A DNA stretch of 31,126 bases, from positions 1 to 31,126 of the forward strand of contig JACKEV010000010.1 of assembly GCA_020632795.1 (NCBI GenBank), written 5' to 3'. Both the position numbers and the translations under genes were made by a program. Source of the DNA: Alphaproteobacteria bacterium (lineage in GTDB: Bacteria; Myxococcota_A; UBA796; CAJQPC01). Below are positions 19,023 through 28,163 of this stretch, in pieces (position 1 is the stretch's first letter; the number at the start of each line of letters is the position of its first letter). The notes beneath the pieces were generated by a model. It saw only the letters and a program-made list of their open reading frames with translations. It was not told the DNA's origin and searched no databases.

Positions 19023-20495
19023 TCAGCGCATCCCGAACCCCCGCAGCTTGCGCTTGAGGGTGTTCCGGTCGATGCCCAGCGCCCGCGCCGCCTGGGAGAG
19101 GTTCCCGTCGAGCTGCGCCAGGGCGTCCGCGATCGCGGCGCGCTCGACCTCAGCCACCCGCTCGACCAGCGGGCGCAGCGGTCCACCCAGGGGCGCCACC
19201 GCCACCCGCACCGGGGCCCCCCGGATCTCCGGGGAGAGGTCCTCCACCGCCACCACATCCTCGCAGAACACCCCCCAGCGGGTCACCTCGGCCCGCAGCT
19301 CCCGCACGTTGCCCGGCCACCGCCAGGACCGCAGCGCGTCCCAGGCCGCCCGCGTCAGCTTCAGGGGCCGCCCCAGCTCCTCCATGAAGTGGGCCACCAG
19401 CCGCTCCAGGTCGCCGCCCCGATCCCGCAGCGCCGGGACCTCGAGGGTCGCGCCCCGCAGCCGATAGTAGAGGTCCTCCCGAAACCGGCCGGCGCGCACC
19501 TCGGACGCCAGGTCCCGGTGGGTCGCCGCGACCACCCGCACGTCCACCCGCACCGGCCGCTCGCCGCCCACCCGACGCAGCTCGCCCTCCTGCAACACCC
19601 GCAGGAGCTGGACCTGCACCCGGGGCGGCATCTCGCCCACCTCATCCAGGAACAGCGTGCCGCCGTCCGCCACCTCGAACAGGCCCCGGCGCCGCCCGGA
19701 GGCCCCGGTGAAGGCCCCCTTCTCGTGCCCGAACAGCTCGCTGGAGAGCACGCCCTCGGCGAACGCCCCGCAGTTCTCGGCGATGAACGGCCCTTCAGCC
19801 CGCGCGCTGGCGGAGTGGATCGCGCGGGCGACCAGCTCCTTGCCCGTCCCGGTCTCCCCATACACCAGCACCGGCACCTCGCTGGGCGCCACCCGGGCCA
19901 GCCTGCGTCGAAGCGTCTGCATGGGCGCGCTCTCGCCGATCATGCGGTCGCTGTCGGCGCGGCGCTCGGCGCGCAGCCGGACCAGCTCCTCGCGCAGGGC
20001 GCGGATCTCCGGGAAGCCCTCGATCTCCAGCCGCACCTCCCGGATGGCCCGGGGGTGGGGGTCTGGTACGAAGGCCGGCGGGATGACCTGGAGCATGCGC
20101 GCCCGGAGCAGCCCCGCCTGCACCAGGATGACCCACAGGGTCTGGGACTGGGGCGTGCCTGCCGAGAGCACCACGTCCAGCTCGGGCGCGCCGCGCAGCT
20201 CCTCGACCAGGGGCGCCAGCCCGAAGAACAGCGCCTCGTGGTCGGTTGGATCCGCCAGATCGATGAGCCGCAGCTCCGCGCGCAGGCCACGCTCCCGCAT
20301 CCGCGCCACCAGGCCCCGAGCGCCCTCCAGCCCCGAGGGGATGCTCAGCACCAGGACCCGGTCGTAGCGCCCCTGGCTCTCCGGCTGGTCGAGGAGCCGC
20401 AGCACAGGCCCCTGATCCGCCGGGTTGTGCGGGAGGGGAGGGCCGGGGACCGGGCGAGGGGCGCCGCGGTCGGACCAGGTGAGCAGCGTGGCCAT
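19023..20495 (-). CDS. rtcR: Sigma54-dependent transcriptional regulator with non-receiver N-terminal domain, RtcR-like (CARF-AAA+-HTH)
   Basis: AAA+ sigma54-interaction domain (GETGTGKE, GAFTGA, ESELFGHEKGAFTGA) and C-terminal Fis-type HTH. The N-terminal ~190 aa lack the receiver D-D-K pattern; the segment DVVLSAGTPQSQTLWVILVQAGLLRARMLQVIPP resembles the CARF domain of RtcR as remembered. ATG at 20495; the track ORF extension to 20861 is not supported. Confidence 0.7.
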   Translation of the reverse strand: MATLLTWSDRGAPRPVPGPPLPHNPADQGPVLRLLDQPESQGRYDRVLVLSIPSGLEGARGLVARMRERGLRAELRLIDLADPTDHEALFFGLAPLVEELRGAPELDVVLSAGTPQSQTLWVILVQAGLLRARMLQVIPPAFVPDPHPRAIREVRLEIEGFPEIRALREELVRLRAERRADSDRMIGESAPMQTLRRRLARVAPSEVPVLVYGETGTGKELVARAIHSASARAEGPFIAENCGAFAEGVLSSELFGHEKGAFTGASGRRRGLFEVADGGTLFLDEVGEMPPRVQVQLLRVLQEGELRRVGGERPVRVDVRVVAATHRDLASEVRAGRFREDLYYRLRGATLEVPALRDRGGDLERLVAHFMEELGRPLKLTRAAWDALRSWRWPGNVRELRAEVTRWGVFCEDVVAVEDLSPEIRGAPVRVAVAPLGGPLRPLVERVAEVERAAIADALAQLDGNLSQAARALGIDRNTLKRKLRGFGMR

Positions 20496-20533
20496 GACCC
20501 CCGAGCCATAGCACAGCCGTTGTCCGCGAGCTT

Positions 20534-20573
20534 GGCCCCCGGGGCTCGGCCCCCGGGGCTCGGCCCCCGGGCC
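20534..20573. repeat. Tandem 14-bp repeat GGCCCCCGGGGCTC (about 2.8 copies) upstream of rtcR
   Basis: Read directly from the sequence; it lies in the rtcR 5' region. Confidence 0.6.
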
Positions 20574-20674
20574 ATCTTCTGTCCGCCATGCGCCCCAGCA
20601 CGACGCATACACGCAAGAGATCAAGCTGAAACCCACCGAATCGAGGTTCCAAAGAACACCACACAAAAAAGTGT

Positions 20675-20702
20675 TTGCACTCTGTCGGTAATGTGGTAAA
20701 AC
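20675..20702 (+). promoter_or_regulatory. Sigma70-like promoter TTGCAC-16-TGgTAAAAC (extended -10)
   Basis: It sits in an unusually AT-rich patch facing the tRNA array. Two GC hairpins follow at 20902-20929 and 20935-20968. Confidence 0.35.
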
Positions 20703-20934
20703 ATCATCGTGGGCCGGGCAGAGGTCCCCCCACACGTCAAAGGAACCTGGCATGTACCGCTTCTCCGCCAACACCCCCTGTATCGCCGAACCCTGGCAGA
20801 CCATTCTGTCCGGTGTGGTGGTGCTCCCTGCCGCCGCCGCAGGCAACATGCCTGCGAGCAAGCGCCCGGGACAGGGTACGGCGGATCAAGCCGAGGGCTC
20901 AGGAAAAACAGCGTAGCAGGCTGTTTTCCTCCAT

Positions 20935-21227: not shown

Positions 21228-21303
21228 GCGCCCGTAGCCAAGCGGTCCATAAGGCACCGGACTCTTAATCCGGCGATCGTGGGTTCGAATCCCACCGGGT
21301 GTA
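21228..21303 (+). tRNA. tRNA-Lys(CTT)
   Basis: Cloverleaf: acceptor GCGCCCG/CGGGTGT (two G-U pairs), anticodon arm CCGGA-CTCTTAA-TCCGG, T-arm GTGGG-TTCGAAT-CCCAC. Confidence 0.75.
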
Positions 21304-21391
21304 CCTCGGTTCTCCACGGGAGATGCTCGCGCAGCGCTCCACGGGAGATGCCTGTCCTGAGCCTCTGCGACCCCGCGTCGCCGAGGCCTGT

Positions 21392-21468
21392 CGGGGTGTA
21401 GCTCAGCCTGGGAGAGCGGCTGGTTCGGATCCAGCAGGTCGTCGGTTCAAATCCGGCCACCCCGACCA
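21392..21468 (+). tRNA. tRNA-Pro(CGG)
   Basis: Acceptor CGGGGTG/CACCCCG, anticodon loop TTCGGAT, T-arm GTCGG-TTCAAAT-CCGGC, encoded CCA. Confidence 0.85.
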
Positions 21469-21520
21469 TCACACGCCTGGAGCGGCCGGTTCTGCACCGG
21501 TCGGTCGCTCCGGGCTCCCT

Positions 21521-21592
21521 GCGGCCGTAGCTCAAAGGTAGAGCACCGTCTTGCCATGGCGGAGGTTGCGCGTTCGAGTCGCGTCGGCCGCT
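21521..21592 (+). tRNA. tRNA-Gly(GCC)
   Basis: Acceptor GCGGCCG/CGGCCGC, anticodon loop TTGCCAT, T-arm GCGCG-TTCGAGT-CGCGT. Confidence 0.85.
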
Positions 21593-21616
21593 TTCGGATC
21601 CACGCAGGGTCCTCGT

Positions 21617-21693
21617 CCGGGTGTAGTTCAGATGCGGAGAACGCCGCGCTGGGAGCGCGGAGGTCGCTGGTTCAAGTCCAGCCACTCGGACCA
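21617..21693 (+). tRNA. tRNA-Pro(GGG)
   Basis: Acceptor CCGGGTG/CACTCGG (one G-U), anticodon loop CTGGGAG, T-arm GCTGG-TTCAAGT-CCAGC, CCA encoded. Confidence 0.8.
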
Positions 21694-21703
21694 TCCCCCT
21701 CAA

Positions 21704-21787
21704 GGCGACGTAGCCAAGCGGAAAGGCACTCGGCTGCAACCCGGGGAGCGCGGCTCCTCCGGAGCGGGTTCAATCCCGCCGTCGCCT
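21704..21787 (+). tRNA. tRNA-Cys(GCA)-like, 84 nt, with a 14-nt insertion before the T-arm and a 6-nt T-loop (variant or pseudogene)
   Basis: Identical to canonical copy 21946..22016 in acceptor (GGCGACG/CGTCGCC, U73), D-arm and anticodon arm (loop CTGCAAC). It carries CTCCTCCGGAGCGG inserted between the variable loop and T-stem, and TTCAAT where the canonical copy has TTCAAAT. Confidence 0.55.
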
Positions 21788-21824
21788 CTTGTTCATGTTC
21801 CAACTGACCCATCACACTTCTCAA

Positions 21825-21908
21825 GGCGACGTAGCCAAGCGGAAAGGCACTCGGCTGCAACCCGGGGAGCGCGGCTCCTCCGGAGCGGGTTCAATCCCGC
21901 CGTCGCCT
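21825..21908 (+). tRNA. tRNA-Cys(GCA)-like, second identical 84-nt copy with the 14-nt insertion
   Basis: Exact 121-bp tandem duplicate (gene plus spacer) of 21704..21824. Confidence 0.55.
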
Positions 21909-21945
21909 CTTGTTCATGTTCCAACTGACCCATCACACTTCTCAA

Positions 21946-22016
21946 GGCGACGTAGCCAAGCGGAAAGGCACTCGGCTGCAACCCGGGGAGCGCGGGTTCA
22001 AATCCCGCCGTCGCCT
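21946..22016 (+). tRNA. tRNA-Cys(GCA), canonical 71 nt
   Basis: Acceptor GGCGACG/CGTCGCC with U73 discriminator (the Cys identity element), anticodon loop CTGCAAC, 4-nt variable loop, T-arm GCGGG-TTCAAAT-CCCGC. Confidence 0.8.
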
Positions 22017-22023
22017 CTTGTCT

Positions 22024-22100
22024 CAAGGTGTAGCTCAGGCGAGGAGAGCGGCTGGTTTGGAACCAGCAGGCCGCCGGTTCGAGTCCGGCCACCTTGACCA
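22024..22100 (+). tRNA. tRNA-Pro(TGG)
   Basis: Acceptor CAAGGTG/CACCTTG, anticodon loop TTTGGAA, T-arm GCCGG-TTCGAGT-CCGGC, CCA encoded. Confidence 0.85.
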
Positions 22101-22116
22101 TCTCTGACGACCACAT

Positions 22117-22188
22117 GCGTCCGTAGCTCAATGGTAGAGCGCTGCCCTCCCAAGGCAGAGGTTGCGCGTTCGAGTCGCGTCGGTCGCT
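22117..22188 (+). tRNA. tRNA-Gly(CCC)
   Basis: Acceptor GCGTCCG/CGGTCGC (one T-T mismatch), anticodon loop CTCCCAA, T-arm GCGCG-TTCGAGT-CGCGT. Confidence 0.75.
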
Positions 22189-22195
22189 TCCCTAC

Positions 22196-22266
22196 AGGGT
22201 CGAGCGCTGGTTGTGTCAGGCGGCCTCCAAAGTCGCCCTGCGAGAGTTCGAATCTCTCCGGCCCTG
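22196..22266 (+). tRNA. tRNA-Trp(CCA) with irregular D-arm
   Basis: Anticodon loop CTCCAAA and T-arm/acceptor GAGAG-TTCGAAT-CTCTC-CGGCCCT-G closely resemble bacterial tRNA-Trp (A1-U72, G73). The D-arm does not fold cleanly by eye. Confidence 0.55.
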
Positions 22267-22285
22267 CTCCTTCATCCAGCACCAC

Positions 22286-22359
22286 AGGCGAGTGGCGCAA
22301 TCGCGGAGCGCACCGCTCTCACACAGCGGAGGTTGCGGGTTCGAGTCCCGCCTCGCCTA
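22286..22359 (+). tRNA. tRNA-Val(CAC)
   Basis: Acceptor AGGCGAG/CTCGCCT, D-stem GCGC/GCGC, anticodon loop CTCACAC, T-arm GCGGG-TTCGAGT-CCCGC. Confidence 0.8.
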
Positions 22360-22389: not shown

Positions 22390-23484
22390 ATGTCCTCTTT
22401 CGCCGTCAAGGTCGTGCGGCTCCGCGTCGAGCCACACCACAACGCAGATGCCCTCGAGCTGGCGCGCGTGGGCGACTACCTCTCCGTGGTCCGCAAGGGC
22501 CAGTTCAGGACCGGCGACCTCGCCGCCTACATCCCCGAGCAGGCCATCGTCCCCGACGAGCTGCTCGAGGAGATGGGGCTCACGGGGCGCCTGGCCGGCA
22601 AGTTCGCCAACCGCGTCAAGGCCATCCGGCTGCGGGGCGTGCTGTCCCAGGGCCTCTGCTACCCGGCGCGGCCGGAGTGGCCCGAGGGCCTCGACGTGAC
22701 CGAGACCCTGGGCATCGTCAAGCACGAGCCCCCGGTCCCCACGTCGATGGACGGCCAGGCCTGGGCGGCCGGGCTGGACCGCTGCCTGCGCTACGACATC
22801 GAGAACATCAAGCGTTTCCCCGATGTCCTGGCCGACGGCGAGCCGGTCGTCTTCACCGAGAAGATCCACGGCACCTGGACCCAGCTCGGCCTCGTGCCCG
22901 AGGCCTGGGCCCACGCCGAGCACGGTCGGCTGGTCGTCAGCTCGAAGGGGCTCGCCGCGCGCGGCCTGGCGTTCATGCCGAACGCCCAGGAGAACGAGCG
23001 AAACCTCTACCTCCGGGTCGCCCGCACCCTGGACATCGAGGCCCGCCTGGAGGCGGCCTTCAGCGGCACGCTGAGCGCCGACGCGCCGGTCTTCGTCCTC
23101 GGCGAGACCTTCGGCGCGGGCGTCCAGGACCTCGCCTACGGCGCGAACGTCGGCCACGACGCCAGCCTCGGCTTCCGGGTGTTCGACGTCTACGTCGGCG
23201 CGGTCGGCCAGGGGCACTTCCTGGACGACACCGAGCTGGAGGCCGCGTGCCGTGCGCTCAGCCTGGAGCGTGTCCCGGTGGTCTACCGGGGTCCGTTCAG
23301 CCGCGAGGCGCTCGCCGAGCACACCGACGGCCGCGAGCAGGTCAGCGGAGAGGGCAAGCACATCCGAGAGGGTGTGGTCGTCCGACCCGTCCACGAGCGG
23401 CGCCACGACGAGCTGGGCCGCGTCCAGCTCAAGTCGGTGTCCGAGCGCTACCTGCTCCGCAAGGGTGGGACCGAGTACAACTGA
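22390..23484 (+). CDS. ATP-dependent RNA ligase (Rnl2/Rnl5-like nucleotidyltransferase) with N-terminal tRNA-binding OB fold (Myf/Trbp111/CsaA-like)
   Basis: ATG at 22390 with RBS AGAGGAGG. N-terminal VKVVRLRVEPHHNADAL...RLRGVLSQGLC matches the HPNAD...KLRGV.S.GM.C pattern of the tRNA-binding OB domain. FTEKIHGTW is the KxHG lysine-adenylylation motif I of RNA ligases. A hairpin follows at ~23489-23525. The part of the track ORF 5' of 22390 reads through tRNA genes and is rejected. Confidence 0.7.
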   Translation: MSSFAVKVVRLRVEPHHNADALELARVGDYLSVVRKGQFRTGDLAAYIPEQAIVPDELLEEMGLTGRLAGKFANRVKAIRLRGVLSQGLCYPARPEWPEGLDVTETLGIVKHEPPVPTSMDGQAWAAGLDRCLRYDIENIKRFPDVLADGEPVVFTEKIHGTWTQLGLVPEAWAHAEHGRLVVSSKGLAARGLAFMPNAQENERNLYLRVARTLDIEARLEAAFSGTLSADAPVFVLGETFGAGVQDLAYGANVGHDASLGFRVFDVYVGAVGQGHFLDDTELEAACRALSLERVPVVYRGPFSREALAEHTDGREQVSGEGKHIREGVVVRPVHERRHDELGRVQLKSVSERYLLRKGGTEYN

Positions 23485-23561: not shown

Positions 23562-23634
23562 GGGTTCGTAGCTCAAGCGGTAGAGCAACGGCCTTTTAAG
23601 CCGGCGGTTCCGGGTTCGAGTCCCGGCGGACCCA
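23562..23634 (+). tRNA. tRNA-Lys(TTT)
   Basis: Acceptor GGGTTCG/CGGACCC (one G-U), anticodon loop CTTTTAA, T-arm CCGGG-TTCGAGT-CCCGG. Confidence 0.8.
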
Positions 23635-23662
23635 CCTCCCTCCTGCCCATCGGGGACCCTGT

Positions 23663-23736
23663 TCCCTGGTCGTTCAACGGCAGGACACCTGGCTCTGAAC
23701 CAGGAGATGGAGGTTCGAGTCCTCCCTGGGGGACCA
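23663..23736 (+). tRNA. tRNA-Gln(CTG)
   Basis: Anticodon arm CCTGG-CTCTGAA-CCAGG, T-arm GGAGG-TTCGAGT-CCTCC, CCA encoded. The acceptor TCCCTGG/CTGGGGG needs three G-U pairs. Confidence 0.6.
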
Positions 23737-23768
23737 TCCGCTCGCGTCGGGCGTCATCGACGCAACAT

Positions 23769-23845
23769 GGGGCAGTAGCTCAACTGGGAGAGCGTCGGGC
23801 TGGCAGTCCGAAGGTTGTGGGTTCAATCCCCATCTGTCTCCACCA
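23769..23845 (+). tRNA. tRNA-Ala(GGC)-like with non-canonical acceptor (extra nt in 3' strand)
   Basis: 5' GGGGCAG, D-arm TAGCTCAACTGGGAGAGC, anticodon loop CTGGCAG, T-arm GTGGG-TTCAATC-CCCAT. The 3' strand CTGTCTCC-A-CCA is one nt longer than the CTGCTCC needed to pair with G3-U70. Confidence 0.55.
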
Positions 23846-23877
23846 TCCGCTCGCGTCGGGCGTCATCGACGCAACAT

Positions 23878-23967
23878 GGGGCAGTAGCTCAACTGGGAGA
23901 GCGTCGGGCTGGCAGTCCGAAGGTTGTGGGTCCTCCAGACCGGGTTCACTCCCATCTGTCTCCACCA
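23878..23967 (+). tRNA. tRNA-Ala(GGC)-like, 90 nt, with a 14-nt insertion before the T-arm and a 6-nt T-loop (variant or pseudogene)
   Basis: Identical to 23769 copy through the anticodon arm. It carries TCCTCCAGACCGGG inserted and TTCACT in place of TTCAATC. This is the same pair of changes seen in the Cys-like copies. Confidence 0.5.
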
Positions 23968-23997
23968 TCCGCTCGCGTCGGGCGTCATCGACGCAAC

Positions 23998-24074
23998 ATG
24001 GGGCAGTAGCTCAACTCGGGAGAGCGCCCGGTTCGCATCCGGGAGGTTGTGGGTTCAAGTCCCATCTGTCTCCA
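23998..24074 (+). tRNA. tRNA-Ala(CGC)-like (same non-canonical acceptor)
   Basis: Anticodon arm CCCGG-TTCGCAT-CCGGG, T-arm GTGGG-TTCAAGT-CCCAT. It shares the 5' spacer and acceptor of the 23769 copy. Confidence 0.55.
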
Positions 24075-24107
24075 CCATCCGCTCGCGTCGGGCGTATACG
24101 GCGCAAC

Positions 24108-24180
24108 ATGGGACGGTAGCTCAATCGCGGAGAGCGTCCGGCTTGCACCCGGGAGGCTGCGGGTTCGAATCCCGCCCGCT
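24108..24180 (+). tRNA. tRNA-Ala(TGC)
   Basis: Acceptor GGGACGG/CCGCTCC with G3-U70 and one A-C mismatch, anticodon loop CTTGCAC, T-arm GCGGG-TTCGAAT-CCCGC. The end coordinate is approximate. Confidence 0.65.
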
Positions 24181-24195
24181 CCACTCGCGGCAGAA

Positions 24196-24228
24196 GGGGC
24201 GGCGGCGCATGGGGAGCGCCGCCGCCCC
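24196..24228 (+). terminator. Perfect 13-bp-stem hairpin GGGGCGGCGGCGC-ATGGGGA-GCGCCGCCGCCCC inside the tRNA array
   Basis: Read directly from the sequence. No T-run. It lies between tRNA-Ala(TGC) and tRNA-Gln(TTG). Confidence 0.35.
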
Positions 24229-24237
24229 ACGGGGTCT

Positions 24238-24309
24238 GCGGGGATGGCCAAGCGGCAAGGCGCCGGGCTTTGAACTCGGAGAGCGTGGGTTCGATCCCCA
24301 CTCCCCGTT
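24238..24309 (+). tRNA. tRNA-Gln(TTG)
   Basis: D-arm GCC-AAGCGGCAA-GGC, anticodon arm CCGGG-CTTTGAA-CTCGG, T-arm GTGGG-TTCGATC-CCCAC, acceptor GCGGGGA/TCCCCGT. Confidence 0.7.
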
Positions 24310-24329
24310 CCTCCCCTTCCCATCTCCCC

Positions 24330-24403
24330 GCCGGTGTAGCTCAGTCGGCCAGAGCGCCTGACTCGTAATCAGGAGGTCGCCGGTTCGACTCCGGCCACCG
24401 GCT
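24330..24403 (+). tRNA. tRNA-Thr(CGT)
   Basis: Acceptor GCCGGTG/CACCGGC, anticodon loop CTCGTAA, T-arm GCCGG-TTCGACT-CCGGC. Confidence 0.85.
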
Positions 24404-24411
24404 CTCCATGC

Positions 24412-24483
24412 GCCCGGGTAGCTCAGTGGAAGAGCACCGCACTGGTAACGCGGAGGTCGGGAGTTCGATTCTCCCCCCGGGCA
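24412..24483 (+). tRNA. tRNA-Thr(GGT)
   Basis: Acceptor GCCCGGG/CCCGGGC, anticodon loop CTGGTAA, T-arm GGGAG-TTCGATT-CTCCC. Confidence 0.8.
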
Positions 24484-24487
24484 TTGT

Positions 24488-24560
24488 GCCCGCTTGGCTC
24501 AACAGGCAGAGCATCCGTCTTGTAAGCGGGAGGTTGCGAGTTCGATTCTCGCGGCGGGCA
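24488..24560 (+). tRNA. tRNA-Thr(TGT)
   Basis: Acceptor GCCCGCT/GGCGGGC, anticodon loop CTTGTAA, T-arm GCGAG-TTCGATT-CTCGC. Confidence 0.8.
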
Positions 24561-24569
24561 CTACCTCAT

Positions 24570-24642
24570 GCAGGCGTAGCTCACTTGGAAGAGCGTCGGG
24601 TTTCCACCCCGAAGGTCGCCGGTTCGACCCCGGTCGCCTGCT
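24570..24642 (+). tRNA. tRNA-Gly(TCC)
   Basis: Acceptor GCAGGCG/CGCCTGC, anticodon loop TTTCCAC, T-arm GCCGG-TTCGACC-CCGGT. Confidence 0.8.
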
Positions 24643-24689
24643 CTCACGAGACCCCATGCGTGTTCGCGATGTCACCTCAGGAGGCGGTC

Positions 24690-25277
24690 ATGGACAGCGT
24701 ATTGTTGCTGAACGCAGACTACACCCCATTGAGCGTGCTCGGCTGGCAGCGGGCGGTGAACCTGCTGCTCGACGAGAAGGCCAACGTGGTCGTCGAGTAC
24801 GCCGGTCGCGTCATCCGCTCCCAGTCGTTCGACCTGCCCTGGCCGGCGGTCGTCGCGCTGCACCGGTACCGGAAGCACAGCGAGCGCGTCCGGTTCAACC
24901 GCATCAGCGTGATCGCCCGGGACAGCGCGTCCTGCCAGTACTGCGGGGTCACCCCGAGGGGCCGCAACGGCCGCCTGGCCATCGACGAGCTGACCCTCGA
25001 CCACGTCGTGCCCCGCGCGCGCGCGGTCGACGGCCGGGTCCGGCTGCCGTGGAGCGGCCGTCGGGTGCCGGTGACCTCCTGGGAGAACGTCGTCATCGCC
25101 TGCGAGCCCTGCAACCACCGCAAGGCCGACCGCCTGCCCGAGGAGGCCGGCATGACCCTCCGGCGGCCGCCACACCGCCCGTCGTCCAGGGAGATCCTGC
25201 ACGCGAACCTGCTCCGGGCGAGGATCCCGGAGGAGTGGCGGATGTTCCTGCCCGAGGCGACGCTCCCGCAGAGCTGA
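24690..25277 (+). CDS. HNH endonuclease
   Basis: ATG at 24690 with RBS CAGGAGG; an alternative ATG lies at 24669. HNH signature CQYCG...LDHVVPRAR...N...CEPCNHRKAD (Cys4 zinc plus H-N-H). An intrinsic terminator follows. Confidence 0.75.
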   Translation: MDSVLLLNADYTPLSVLGWQRAVNLLLDEKANVVVEYAGRVIRSQSFDLPWPAVVALHRYRKHSERVRFNRISVIARDSASCQYCGVTPRGRNGRLAIDELTLDHVVPRARAVDGRVRLPWSGRRVPVTSWENVVIACEPCNHRKADRLPEEAGMTLRRPPHRPSSREILHANLLRARIPEEWRMFLPEATLPQS

Positions 25278-25283
25278 GACCAC

Positions 25284-25320
25284 GCGCCCCCCTTGACGGG
25301 GGGCGCGCTTGGTTGTATTT
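25284..25320 (+). terminator. Intrinsic terminator: 9-bp stem GCGCCCCCC-TTGAC-GGGGGGCGC followed by GCTTGGTTGTATTTGTTG
   Basis: Perfect stem plus T-rich tail directly after the HNH stop. Confidence 0.6.
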
Positions 25321-26325: not shown

Positions 26326-27540
26326 ATGTGCACCCTGCCTGTCCACGCCCGCATCCTCGCCCGCGACGACGTCCGCGTTGAAGGCGACGCCGTCGATCAG
26401 CTCGCCCGCGTGGCGGGCTTCCCCGGCTGCGTGCGGGCTGTCGGCCTGCCGGACCTGCACCCCGGGCCAGGCATCCCCATCGGCGCGGCCTTCGCGTTCC
26501 GCGACGCGGTGTGGCCCGGTCTGGTGGGCGGAGACGCCGGCTGCGGCGCGCGGCTGGTGGCCCTCTCCAAGACCCGGATGCGCGGGGACGCCCTGGAGCG
26601 CCGCGTGCGGGAGTGGACCGAGGGCCCGCCGCTGCCGGACGCCGACCCCGACGCGCTGCTGGCGGCGGTCTGGGCCCGGGGCCCGCGCGGCCTGGCGGAG
26701 GTCCCGGGCGTGCCCGCCTCCCTGGCGGCGCTCGCCGAGGTCGAGGCCCCCGAGCCGGATGGCCCGGTCGCTCCCCTGCCCTTCGAGGGTCGGTTCGGGG
26801 CGTCCCTGGGCACGGTGGGTGGGGGCAACCACTTCGCCGAGATCAGCGAGGTCACCGAGGTGGCCGACAAGCCGCGCGCGCGGGCCCTGGGCCTCCGGCA
26901 CGGCGGGACGGTGGTGCTGGTCCACTCCGGGTCCCGGGGTCTGGGCAAGGCCCTGGCCGATCGGTGGGGCCTGCGGGCGCTGACCGGCGCCGACCAGGCG
27001 CAGTACCTGGGCGAGCTGGCCGGCGCGCTGCGGTTCGCCCGCGCCAACCGGCTGGTCATCGCGTGGAGGCTGCTGGGCGCCCTGGGCTCCGCGCGCCCCT
27101 CCCGCGTCGCCCATCAGGTCGACCTCATCCACAACAGCGTGGTCCGGGGCACCCTGGGCGGGCAGGGGGTATGGGTCCACCGCAAGGGCAGCGCCCCGGC
27201 CGAGGCCGGCCAGCCCACCGTGGTGCTGGGCAGCCGGGGCACGCCGAGCTGGGTGATGGAGGGCACCGGCTCGGAGGACAGCCTGGCCTCGGTGGCCCAC
27301 GGCGCGGGCCGGGCGATGGGGCGCAGCGAGGCGGTGGCCAAGCTCAAGCCGGCCATGACCCGGAAGTCCCTGCTGCGGACCGCGTCAGGGGGGCGGGTCA
27401 TCTGCGACGACCCCGAGCTGCTCTACGCCGAGCACCCCAAGGCCTACAAGCCCATCGGGCCGGTGGTCGACAGCCTGGTGGAGGCCGGGCTGGCCCGGCC
27501 AGTGGCGGCGCTGCTGCCGCAGTTCACGGTGAAGCGATGA
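26326..27540 (+). CDS. rtcB: RtcB-family RNA 3'-phosphate/5'-OH ligase
   Basis: 404 aa. Conserved RtcB metal- and GTP-site motifs DAGCGAR (D-x-GCG), GGGNHFAE (GxGNHF) and HGAGR (HNHAGR-like). ATG at 26326 with GGAG 8 nt upstream. Confidence 0.8.
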   Translation: MCTLPVHARILARDDVRVEGDAVDQLARVAGFPGCVRAVGLPDLHPGPGIPIGAAFAFRDAVWPGLVGGDAGCGARLVALSKTRMRGDALERRVREWTEGPPLPDADPDALLAAVWARGPRGLAEVPGVPASLAALAEVEAPEPDGPVAPLPFEGRFGASLGTVGGGNHFAEISEVTEVADKPRARALGLRHGGTVVLVHSGSRGLGKALADRWGLRALTGADQAQYLGELAGALRFARANRLVIAWRLLGALGSARPSRVAHQVDLIHNSVVRGTLGGQGVWVHRKGSAPAEAGQPTVVLGSRGTPSWVMEGTGSEDSLASVAHGAGRAMGRSEAVAKLKPAMTRKSLLRTASGGRVICDDPELLYAEHPKAYKPIGPVVDSLVEAGLARPVAALLPQFTVKR

Positions 27541-28163
27541 GGCGGCTGTTGCTGGTGTCCGCCGGCACCGGGCCGGTGGAGGTGCGGCGCTTCGTGGCGC
27601 TGCTGGCGGCCTGGTTGGCCGAGGCCTGCGCGTCGCGGGGGCTCGCGGTGCGCTCGGTGACCGTGAGCGGTGAGGACGAGGCGCCGCGGTCGGTGACGCT
27701 GGAGGTCTCGGGCGGGGCGTCGCTGGAGGGCCTGCTGGGGACCCACGCGCTGGTGGCCCGCAGCGCGACCCGGGGCCGCCGCGCCCGCAAGCGCTGGTAC
27801 GCCGGAGTCAGCGCGCACGACGCGCCCGTCGGGGCTGCGGTGGAGGTCGACCCCTCGGAGGTGAGCTTCACCGCGTGCCGGGCGGGGGGCCCCGGCGGGC
27901 AGCACGTCAACACCACCGCCAGCGCGGTGTGGGCCACCCATGGGCCCACCGGGCTGCGGGTACGTGTCGCCAGCGAGCGCTCCCAGCACGCCAACCGGAG
28001 GATCGCCCTGGCGCGGCTGGCGGAGGTGCTCGCCTCGCGGGACGCTGAGAAGCGCGCGGTGGGCCGGGACCGGCGATGGCGCTCCCACCATCGCCTGGAA
28101 CGGGGGCGTCCGGTGCGGACCTGGGGGCTGGATCCCGGTGGGGCTGCGCTGGTGGAGCGCTGA
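27537..28163 (+). CDS. prfH: Peptide chain release factor homologue PrfH (RF-H)
   Basis: 208 aa. GGQ motif (GGPGGQHVNTTASAV) in a short class-I RF-like fold. The start overlaps the rtcB stop (ATGA), the canonical rtcB-prfH coupling. Confidence 0.75.
   Translation: MRRLLLVSAGTGPVEVRRFVALLAAWLAEACASRGLAVRSVTVSGEDEAPRSVTLEVSGGASLEGLLGTHALVARSATRGRRARKRWYAGVSAHDAPVGAAVEVDPSEVSFTACRAGGPGGQHVNTTASAVWATHGPTGLRVRVASERSQHANRRIALARLAEVLASRDAEKRAVGRDRRWRSHHRLERGRPVRTWGLDPGGAALVER

Follow-up and report, generated by a model that had tools for sequence, protein, structure and literature searches.

The window analysed here, the whole 31,126-nt stretch of metagenomic DNA given above, contains an array of 21 transfer RNA (tRNA) genes called by ARAGORN and one broken tRNA-like copy, all on the plus strand between positions 21228 and 24643 and interrupted only by an RNA ligase gene (Table 1). 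Three consecutive tandem units of this array, 109–122 nt long, each carry a tRNA-Ala sequence with one nucleotide too many in the 3′ strand of its acceptor stem. Copies 1, 2 and 3 all begin with GGGGCAG and end with CTGTCTCC-ACCA. A 32-nt spacer, TCCGCTCGCGTCGGGCGTCATCGACGCAACAT, identical in all its instances, precedes each of the three copies and is also found behind tRNA-Gln(CUG); it contains a 6-bp inverted repeat, GCGTCG-N8-CGACGC, which may be a processing or recombination signal. The fourth tRNA-Ala of the array follows behind a diverged form of the spacer.

Table 1. Features of the tRNA array, of its surroundings in the window and of the loci compared with it.
Feature	Sequence	Positions	Strand	Remarks
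Sigma-54-dependent activator	window	19023..20861	-	divergent, upstream of array; under every equivalog cut-off (RtcR 313 against 650 bits)
tRNA block 1	window	21228..22359	+	11 genes: Lys, Pro x3, Gly x2, Cys x3, Trp, Val; ARAGORN
Hairpin-bearing tRNA-Cys copies	window	21704-21788, 21825-21909		
ATP-dependent RNA ligase (TIGR02306 / DRB0094 family)	window	22390..23484	+	splits array in two
tRNA block 2	window	23562..24643	+	10 called genes and broken Ala copy
Spacer repeat, first instance	window	23737..23768	+	after tRNA-Gln(CUG)
tRNA-Ala(GGC) copy 1	window	23769..23845	+	encoded A73-CCA; intact except for 8-nt 3′ acceptor strand; ARAGORN, RF00005 57.3 bits
3′ acceptor strand CTGTCTCC of copy 1	window	23834..23841	+	homology register: extra T = 23837, A73 = 23842
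Spacer repeat, second instance	window	23846..23877	+	
tRNA-Ala(GGC)-like copy 2, broken	window	23878..23967	+	acceptor, D arm and anticodon arm as copy 1
Extra hairpin of Ala copy 2	window	23926-23955		
Insertion TCCTCCAGACCGGG in copy 2	window	23931..23944	+	14 nt, breaks T arm
3′ acceptor strand CTGTCTCC of copy 2	window	23956..23963	+	extra T = 23959
Spacer repeat, third instance	window	23968..23999	+	
tRNA-Ala(CGC) copy 3	window	24000..24077	+	encoded A73-CCA; acceptor stem and flanks as copy 1; ARAGORN, RF00005 58.0 bits
3′ acceptor strand CTGTCTCC of copy 3	window	24066..24073	+	extra T = 24069, A73 = 24074; also in assembly L307
Diverged spacer TCCGCTCGCGTCGGGCGTATACGGCGCAACAT	window	24078..24109	+	before fourth tRNA-Ala
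tRNA-Ala(UGC), fourth copy	window	24110..24183	+	regular 7+7 acceptor, G3:U70, A73; ARAGORN, RF00005
HNH endonuclease	window	24690..25277	+	directly behind array; terminator-like hairpin 25283-25307 next
RtcB-family RNA ligase, PrfH-linked type	window	26326..27540	+	TIGR03073 268.4 bits, cut-off 271.8
PrfH-like release-factor homologue	window	27537..28163	+	GGQ motif; TIGR03072 153.6 bits, cut-off 166.65; start overlaps RtcB stop codon
Hairpin-bearing tRNA-Pro copies	L004	4778-4864, 5121-5207		
Hairpin-bearing tRNA-Asp copy	L309	5673-5759		
tRNA-Ala of GGGGU(U/C)G class	L001	302-375		Streptomyces BE-cluster phages and several unrelated viral contigs, one of 402 kb (this row and the next two)
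tRNA-Ala of GGGGU(U/C)G class	L002	303-376		
tRNA-Ala of GGGGU(U/C)G class	L168, L185, L197, L199, L219, L241, L262			IMG/VR

The extra nucleotide stands out against the closest relatives of these genes. In IMG/VR, 24 tRNA-Ala genes at 22 loci have the same first 14 nt, GGGGCAGTAGCTCA, and all 24 end in CTGCTCC-A, while in two metagenome contigs (L076 and L077) the T arm of the tRNA-Ala is also the same as in the window copies and the 3′ end reads CTGCTCC-ACCA. Relative to these 26 canonical genes, copies 1–3 carry one more T, placed behind G68. Canonical bacterial and phage tRNA-Ala of the form GGGGCAG/CUGCUCC-A (L012 and L267 in IMG/VR, L076 among the metagenomes) thus resembles the window genes in its 5′ strand, D arm and anticodons (GGC, CGC, UGC), in L076 in the T arm also; it has the same determinants as the window copies aligned in homology register, and often encodes its CCA. 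In contrast, the window copies display an extra U after G68, a helix of seven nucleotides against eight and three nearly isoenergetic registers. An independent Logan assembly of run SRR12358676 (L307) starts with CTGTCTCCACCATCC..., has the same 3′ end and breaks at the repeat. An error in the metagenome-assembled genome (MAG) is therefore unlikely to have created the extra base, of which we are more certain than of the exact number of repeat copies. The preliminary description of this DNA had reported an extra nucleotide in the three copies that share the spacer, and the sequence itself, the 26 relatives and L307 all bear this out. The three copies are tandem duplicates and represent one event multiplied, not three independent observations.

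The same anomaly occurs in two viral sequences. A tRNA-Ala(UGC) on viral contig L145 shares 78% identity with the window copies and has the acceptor stem GGGGCAG/CTGTCTCC-ACCA, with the same 8-nt strand; its T stem (GAGAG/CTCTT) and anticodon stem are unlike those of the window copies, mostly through compensatory pair changes. Similarly, the tRNA-Ala(UGC) of viral array L243 has the acceptor stem GGGGGCG/CGTTCTCC-ACCA, where its canonical relatives read CGTCTCC. Searches for near-identical sequences among phage and plasmid records gave no match to the array, the loci reached through ligase and HNH homologues yielded no second array with the window tRNA-Ala family, and a scan of genome contigs seeded with the RNA ligase returned a single weak and irrelevant match. 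A search of IMG/VR for CCCATCTGTCTCCACCA produced four chance matches only, at sites without an ARAGORN tRNA call, and no relatives of the L145 T arm were found when these were searched for. The metagenome scan relied on an over-general T-arm pattern and returned mostly unrelated low-GC tRNA or tRNA-like sequences, with only two useful canonical tRNA-Ala genes. A literature search turned up no elongator tRNA-Ala for which a 7/8 acceptor helix has been described.

Eight nucleotides (CTGTCTCC) separate the T stem from A73 in copies 1–3, and a regular helix of seven against seven is thus absent. As GGGG of the 5′ strand lies opposite UCUCC, the unpaired base has three possible places. In register A the U bulges between pairs 4:69 and 5:68, leaving G3:U70, A73 and the CCA tail in place, at a predicted -21.8 kcal/mol for copy 1. 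In register B the bulge moves to between 2:71 and 3:70, giving G3:C and G4:U (-22.1 kcal/mol), whereas register C is bulge-free and is made up of G2:U71, G3:C70, G4:U69 and C73, followed by a 5-nt CACCA tail (-22.0 kcal/mol). The energies of copy 3 are spread in the same way. Since the three registers lie within 0.3 kcal/mol of each other, folding energy cannot decide which of them forms. The T stem of copies 1 and 3 has its normal 5 bp (GUGGG/CCCAU), distinct from that of 8/4 or 9/3 tRNAs such as allo-tRNA or selC-like molecules. An 8-bp acceptor stem or 8/4 architecture was rejected because no eighth pair is possible, T8 being mismatched with the next 3′ base, and a position of the extra base between T stem and acceptor stem was rejected because it would create C5.U and A6.G mismatches.

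The encoded 3′ end points to register A, which is also the register given by homology to the canonical genes. The three tRNA-Pro genes, tRNA-Gln(CUG) and the three Ala copies of the window all terminate in ACCA with TC behind it, and the other tRNAs of the viral arrays also end in N73-CCA (9/9 in L145 and 4/4 in L243, 13/13 together). The CCA of the window copies is in step with these neighbouring CCA-encoding tRNAs when the discriminator is A73 and not C73, and the mature RNA most likely ends CUCC-A-CCA, with eight 3′ nucleotides facing seven. The classic example of a tRNA identity set by one base pair is G3:U70 within a regular acceptor helix. To our knowledge, all tRNA-Ala outside mitochondria are described as conserving the first three pairs and A73. 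The bacterial alanine determinants tabulated by Giege and Eriani comprise A73, G2-C71, G3.U70, G4-C69 and G20 (PMC9976931, their Table 1). If the encoded CCA marks the 3′ end, register A of copies 1 and 3 has G1:C72, G2:C71, G3:U70, G4:C69, A73 and G20 all in place, the last within the D loop AACUGGGA. The two pairings put forward in the preliminary description, a bulged U and a bulge-free helix with G2-U71, G4-U69 and C73, are thus both valid, but its statement that either of them disrupts the identity element of alanyl-tRNA synthetase (AlaRS) was too strong, as the bulged register holds the complete bacterial set (PMC9976931, Table 1). Judged from the sequence, the change in that register is one of helix geometry just below the alanine determinants and not a loss of alanine identity.

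Copies 1 and 3 otherwise have the features of intact genes. ARAGORN calls them Ala(ggc) and Ala(cgc), and their RF00005 scores compare with a gathering score of 29. Both form a cloverleaf in which all stems pair, with an NGC anticodon and the conserved tertiary nucleotides U8, A14, A15:U48 (the Levitt pair), G18, G19, A21, T54-T55-C56 and A58; copy 1 also has G20 and the T loop TTCAATC. Neither bears the marks of a pseudogene, and the extra U is the only anomaly. The two copies differ from each other at 9 of the 17 anticodon-arm positions while their acceptor stems, D and T stems and 32-nt spacers are identical. From copy 1 to copy 3, pair 27:43 changes from U:A to C:G, 29:41 from G:C to C:G and 31:39 from G:U to G:C, pairing being preserved at each. 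This mosaic suggests gene conversion of the flanks or a cassette-like exchange, with selection keeping two anticodons. The copies are the only intact GGC and CGC alanine genes of the array, in which Pro, Gly and Thr each have complete sets of three anticodons. The fourth copy, earlier set apart as the one that retains G3-U70, does keep this pair together with A73, but it has an A4.C69 mismatch, does not encode CCA and cannot accommodate G20 in its D loop, AATCGCGGA. It is no more canonical than copies 1 and 3, departing from two minor alanine determinants that those keep.

In contrast to copies 1 and 3, copy 2 lacks the full cloverleaf and is a dead copy. It receives no ARAGORN call, scores 42 bits with RF00005 and has a folding z-score of 0.08, no better than shuffled sequence; its T loop is 6 nt long and its T stem, CGGG/CCCA with a C.A mismatch, is reduced to GGG/CCC. 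The possibility of pseudogenes, raised in the preliminary description, therefore fits this copy, with its 14-nt insertion and broken T arm, and does not fit copies 1 and 3, which are flawless but for the extra U. The insertion has the motif TCCTCC-N-GA-N-CGGGTTCA in common with two long tRNA-Cys copies, and ectopic conversion from a tRNA-Cys-like variant probably replaced the original T arm. We also considered that the insertion might be an intron whose removal RtcB assists, and rejected this, as excision would not give back a canonical T loop.

An extra hairpin of about 13–14 nt just 5′ of the T stem recurs in some duplicated tRNA copies of the window and of related loci (Table 1), which align without gaps around a conserved TCC. 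Its 3-bp stem covaries (CUC/GAG, GUC/GAC, CCG/CGG, CUG/CAG), its loop is C-UCC-R, and it is followed by CGGG, which opens a short T stem. The T loop of the hairpin-bearing copies has 6 nt in the window, and in L004 and L309 G54 replaces T54. The long Pro, Asp and Ala copies each bear a further mismatch, G3.A70, U6.U67 and the C.A of the T stem, respectively. RF00005 reads the hairpin as a 15-nt insertion in the variable region. Two IMG/VR motif scans for the cassette gave chance matches only, none of them in a cassette-bearing tRNA. The hairpin may be a mark of inactivated copies or a deliberate extra arm.

The array forms part of an island of RNA-repair genes. The order of genes is the activator (on the minus strand), 11 tRNAs, the RNA ligase, 10 tRNAs with the broken copy, the HNH endonuclease and its hairpin, a MarR-family regulator, a small protein, RtcB, the PrfH-like protein and a methyltransferase; the window, with 65–78% GC, also encodes a lipoxygenase, a DUF481 protein and an acetyl-CoA synthetase. 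Neither a sigma-54 consensus (TGGC-N8-TGC) between the activator gene and the array nor a sigma-70-like promoter for the array was found, and no toxin or specialised synthetase gene was found among the window genes. The ligase matches a protein of an NCBI MAG at 100% identity and proteins of Nannocystis, Nannocystaceae and Myxococcales at 65–74%, and the window therefore probably comes from a Nannocystaceae-like myxobacterium. Among ten loci with 70–74% identical ligases, only one (L004, a syntenic locus of a related MAG with 22 tRNAs) has a tRNA array; the Ala genes there have a regular acceptor stem, GGGGUCA/UGAUUCC-A, that includes G3:U70 and G4:U69. At four Nannocystaceae-like loci (L135, L136, L139, L140) only two tRNA genes, both tRNA-Gln (UUG, CUG), lie before the ligase, and at five, including L005 and L006 from Nannocystis isolates as well as L137 and L138, there is no tRNA. 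This patchy distribution among relatives, one of the criteria for the long horizontally acquired arrays described as L-arrays, points to a foreign origin of the array. In another related MAG (GCA_020632765.1; L309, 5350-5837) a strictly periodic array of [tRNA-Asp, tRNA-Phe] x3 lies directly upstream of a homologue of the window HNH gene, which supports a tie of this HNH family to tRNA arrays.

L-arrays are long, horizontally spread and patchily distributed tRNA arrays that adjoin HNH endonuclease and RNA-repair genes (PMC8421152). In the L-array (trn operon) of Anabaena PCC 7120, 23 of the 26 tRNAs are expressed and aminoacylated and three are pseudogenes (PMC8421152, Santamaria-Gomez et al. 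2021). The window array resembles them in its long run of about 21 co-oriented and closely spaced tRNAs, its patchy presence, its degenerate copies and its neighbours, with an HNH gene adjacent and an RNA ligase, RtcB and a PrfH-like gene nearby. It differs from the Anabaena array in that it is split by the RNA ligase, is partly periodic (Cys x3, Ala x4), lies beside RtcB-PrfH and a sigma-54 activator and belongs to the phylum Myxococcota.

Irregular acceptor stems have parallels in other tRNAs. Bacterial tRNA-Sec variants have a 7-bp acceptor stem with one bulged nucleotide at 3a, 4a or 5a (PMC5330540, Santesmasses et al. 2017). These variants are taken as functional and thus set a precedent for a bulged acceptor-stem nucleotide in a working tRNA. 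The window copies similarly have a single unpaired nucleotide within the acceptor helix, although tRNA-Sec, a specialised tRNA that works without EF-Tu, has its bulge in the 5′ strand, and the window copies, which look like ordinary elongator tRNA-Ala, have theirs in the 3′ strand. Translocated G.U pairs are found in mitochondrial tRNA-Ala, G2:U71 in Drosophila and 5:68 in human (PMC9976931), and register C of the window tRNAs, with G2:U71 and G3:C70, resembles the Drosophila case. In contrast to the window genes, for which a G3:U70 register is also possible and no special AlaRS is known, the mitochondrial tRNAs have regular 7-bp helices and co-evolved synthetases. A class of phage tRNA-Ala with the acceptor GGGGU(U/C)G/CUUCUCC-A, found on unrelated viral contigs, has pyrimidine-pyrimidine mismatches at 5:68 and 6:67 (U5.U68 plus U6.U67 or C6.U67) while pairs 1–4 (G1–G4 with C69–C72) and A73 stay fixed. 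The tRNA-Ala(GGC) of the Streptomyces BE-cluster phages Daubenski and LukeCage, GGGGUUG/CUUCUCC-A, is about 80% identical to copy 1 and likewise conserves the top four pairs and A73. The irregularity of these phage tRNAs consists of two mismatches in a 7/7 helix, unlike the extra nucleotide of the window copies.

The interpretation we prefer, with a probability of roughly 0.5, is that copies 1 and 3 are chargeable accessory tRNA-Ala genes whose extra U is flipped out as a bulge, AlaRS selecting the register with G3:U70 and A73. The anomaly would have begun with the insertion of a single U into the 3′ acceptor strand, changing the canonical CUGCUCC into CUGUCUCC. From there, the acceptor stem and spacer would have reached all three units by tandem duplication and gene conversion within the array, with the two intact genes retaining distinct anticodon arms through compensatory stem changes. 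In the transcript, ending ...CUCC-A-CCA, the unpaired base could occupy any of three places of nearly equal energy; AlaRS would capture register A, the U would flip out and alanine would be charged. Copies 1 and 3 might then serve as spare decoders of GCC/GCU and GCG, respectively, in an island for the repair of translation damage. Their expression, their charging with alanine and such a backup role are what we infer from sequence.

Several observations weigh against this interpretation. A bulge beside 4:69 might deform the helix recognised by AlaRS. G3:U70 makes up only about 23% of the predicted ensemble (pair probability about 0.23), and the minimum-free-energy fold prefers a register without it. 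Structural alignment, a check suggested in the preliminary description, gave different registers with general and Ala-specific tools. ARAGORN and RF00005 choose the bulge-free register C, in which the gene ends at C73 and the stem reads G1:C G2:U G3:C G4:U C5:G A6:U G7:C. In contrast, an Ala-specific covariance model (R1), built from 53 canonical viral tRNA-Ala genes in which positions 1–4 and 69–73 had been fixed by the search pattern, puts copies 1 and 3 in register A with one inserted u between 68 and 69 (CUGuCUCCA), in favour of the preferred interpretation. Its scores are 76.0 bits for copy 1 and 72.9 for copy 3, as high as the 72.2 of the regular fourth copy, with copy 2 at 61.0; they discriminate weakly, tRNA-Gly(UCC) reaching 76.6 bits, and the model was used for alignment and not as a proof of identity. 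Bulged acceptor stems are also rare, found in 2 of 123 sampled viral tRNA-Ala genes. Finally, the array is redundant and contains visibly damaged copies, namely copy 2 and the long Cys copies, and weak selection could thus tolerate a defective acceptor stem.

These last points lead to the first of the alternatives, a serious one although we give it less credence, namely that the extra U is a neutral or a mildly or fully disabling lesion and that the copies are relics with little or no function, hitch-hiking through duplication and gene conversion, dispensable beside housekeeping tRNA-Ala genes elsewhere. The multiplication of one event in three copies, the clear breakage of copy 2, the insertions and extra mismatches in other duplicated copies here and in related arrays, and the rarity of bulged stems in viruses all agree with it, as does the habit of L-arrays to add redundant tRNAs and to contain pseudogenes (3/26 in Anabaena). 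Against it, copies 1 and 3 show no decay in stems or conserved positions beyond the U, their anticodon arms differ by compensatory changes, they are the sole GGC and CGC alanine isoacceptors of the array and the anomaly recurs in the two otherwise well-formed viral arrays L145 and L243.

We regard it as unlikely that the bulge-free or another shifted register is the working one and that the tRNAs, as poor AlaRS substrates, have another purpose, such as decoys, toxin-resistant variants or tRNAs with altered charging. That ARAGORN, RF00005 and the minimum-free-energy fold all pick registers without G3:U70 would fit this proposal, as would the surrounding RNA-repair and ribosome-rescue genes, the sponge role proposed for array tRNAs (PMC8421152) and the translocated G.U determinants of mitochondrial tRNA-Ala (PMC9976931). 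However, the 5-nt CACCA tail would not match the N73-CCA ends of all neighbouring CCA-encoding tRNAs, a G run opposite a pyrimidine run slips by its nature and requires no selection to do so, and the window genes include neither a toxin nor a specialised synthetase. It also counts against a shifted register that we know of no bacterial AlaRS that uses G2:U71 or G4:U69.

More speculative still, and improbable in our estimate, is that the extra U was itself selected. The G.U pair of a slippery helix, moving among 3:70, 4:69 and 2:71, would then leave the tRNA chargeable by AlaRS yet make it a poor substrate or a decoy for a toxin or nuclease directed at the acceptor stem. Such tRNAs, and with them the tRNA-Cys, -Ala, -Pro and -Asp variants that bear the CUCC-loop hairpin, would form an altered stand-in set, called upon once RNA damage has activated the neighbouring ligase and RtcB-PrfH. 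An artefact of sequencing or assembly is very improbable, since, although tandem repeats of 109–122 nt in a MAG are hard for short-read assembly and the Logan contig breaks exactly there, the extra T lies outside a homopolymer, is present in all three MAG copies and in the independent assembly, and the same strand occurs in unrelated viral contigs; only the copy number is uncertain.

An otherwise perfect natural tRNA-Ala with an unpaired base one step beneath G3:U70, and with a helix able to slip, offers a test of the geometry that AlaRS, RNase P, EF-Tu and the ribosome need. If copies 1 and 3 are charged, the structural range of elongator tRNAs would widen and the register chosen by annotation tools would prove to be wrong; if uncharged, the copies would be a case of defects spreading by gene conversion through accessory tRNA arrays. 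The context, a myxobacterial L-array inside an RNA-ligase/RtcB-PrfH island with recurrent hairpin-bearing tRNA variants, may outweigh the single base.

Two minor observations concern the array and the acceptor registers. Between tRNA-Ala(UGC) and tRNA-Gln(UUG), inside the array, positions 24196-24230 form a very strong GC hairpin, GGGGCGGCGGCGC-ATGGGGA-GCGCCGCCGCCCC, with no T tract behind it, which overlaps a weak Rfam match to CcsR1, far under the threshold of that family. In the low-GC metagenome contigs L081 (1695-1768) and L085 (12957-13030), a tRNA with anticodon GUC resembles the window tRNA-Ala in its 5′ half and T arm; its 7-nt 3′ strand, CTGTCTC-A, gives either G2:U71 with G4:U69 or a register shifted by one base, the latter being preferred by ARAGORN.

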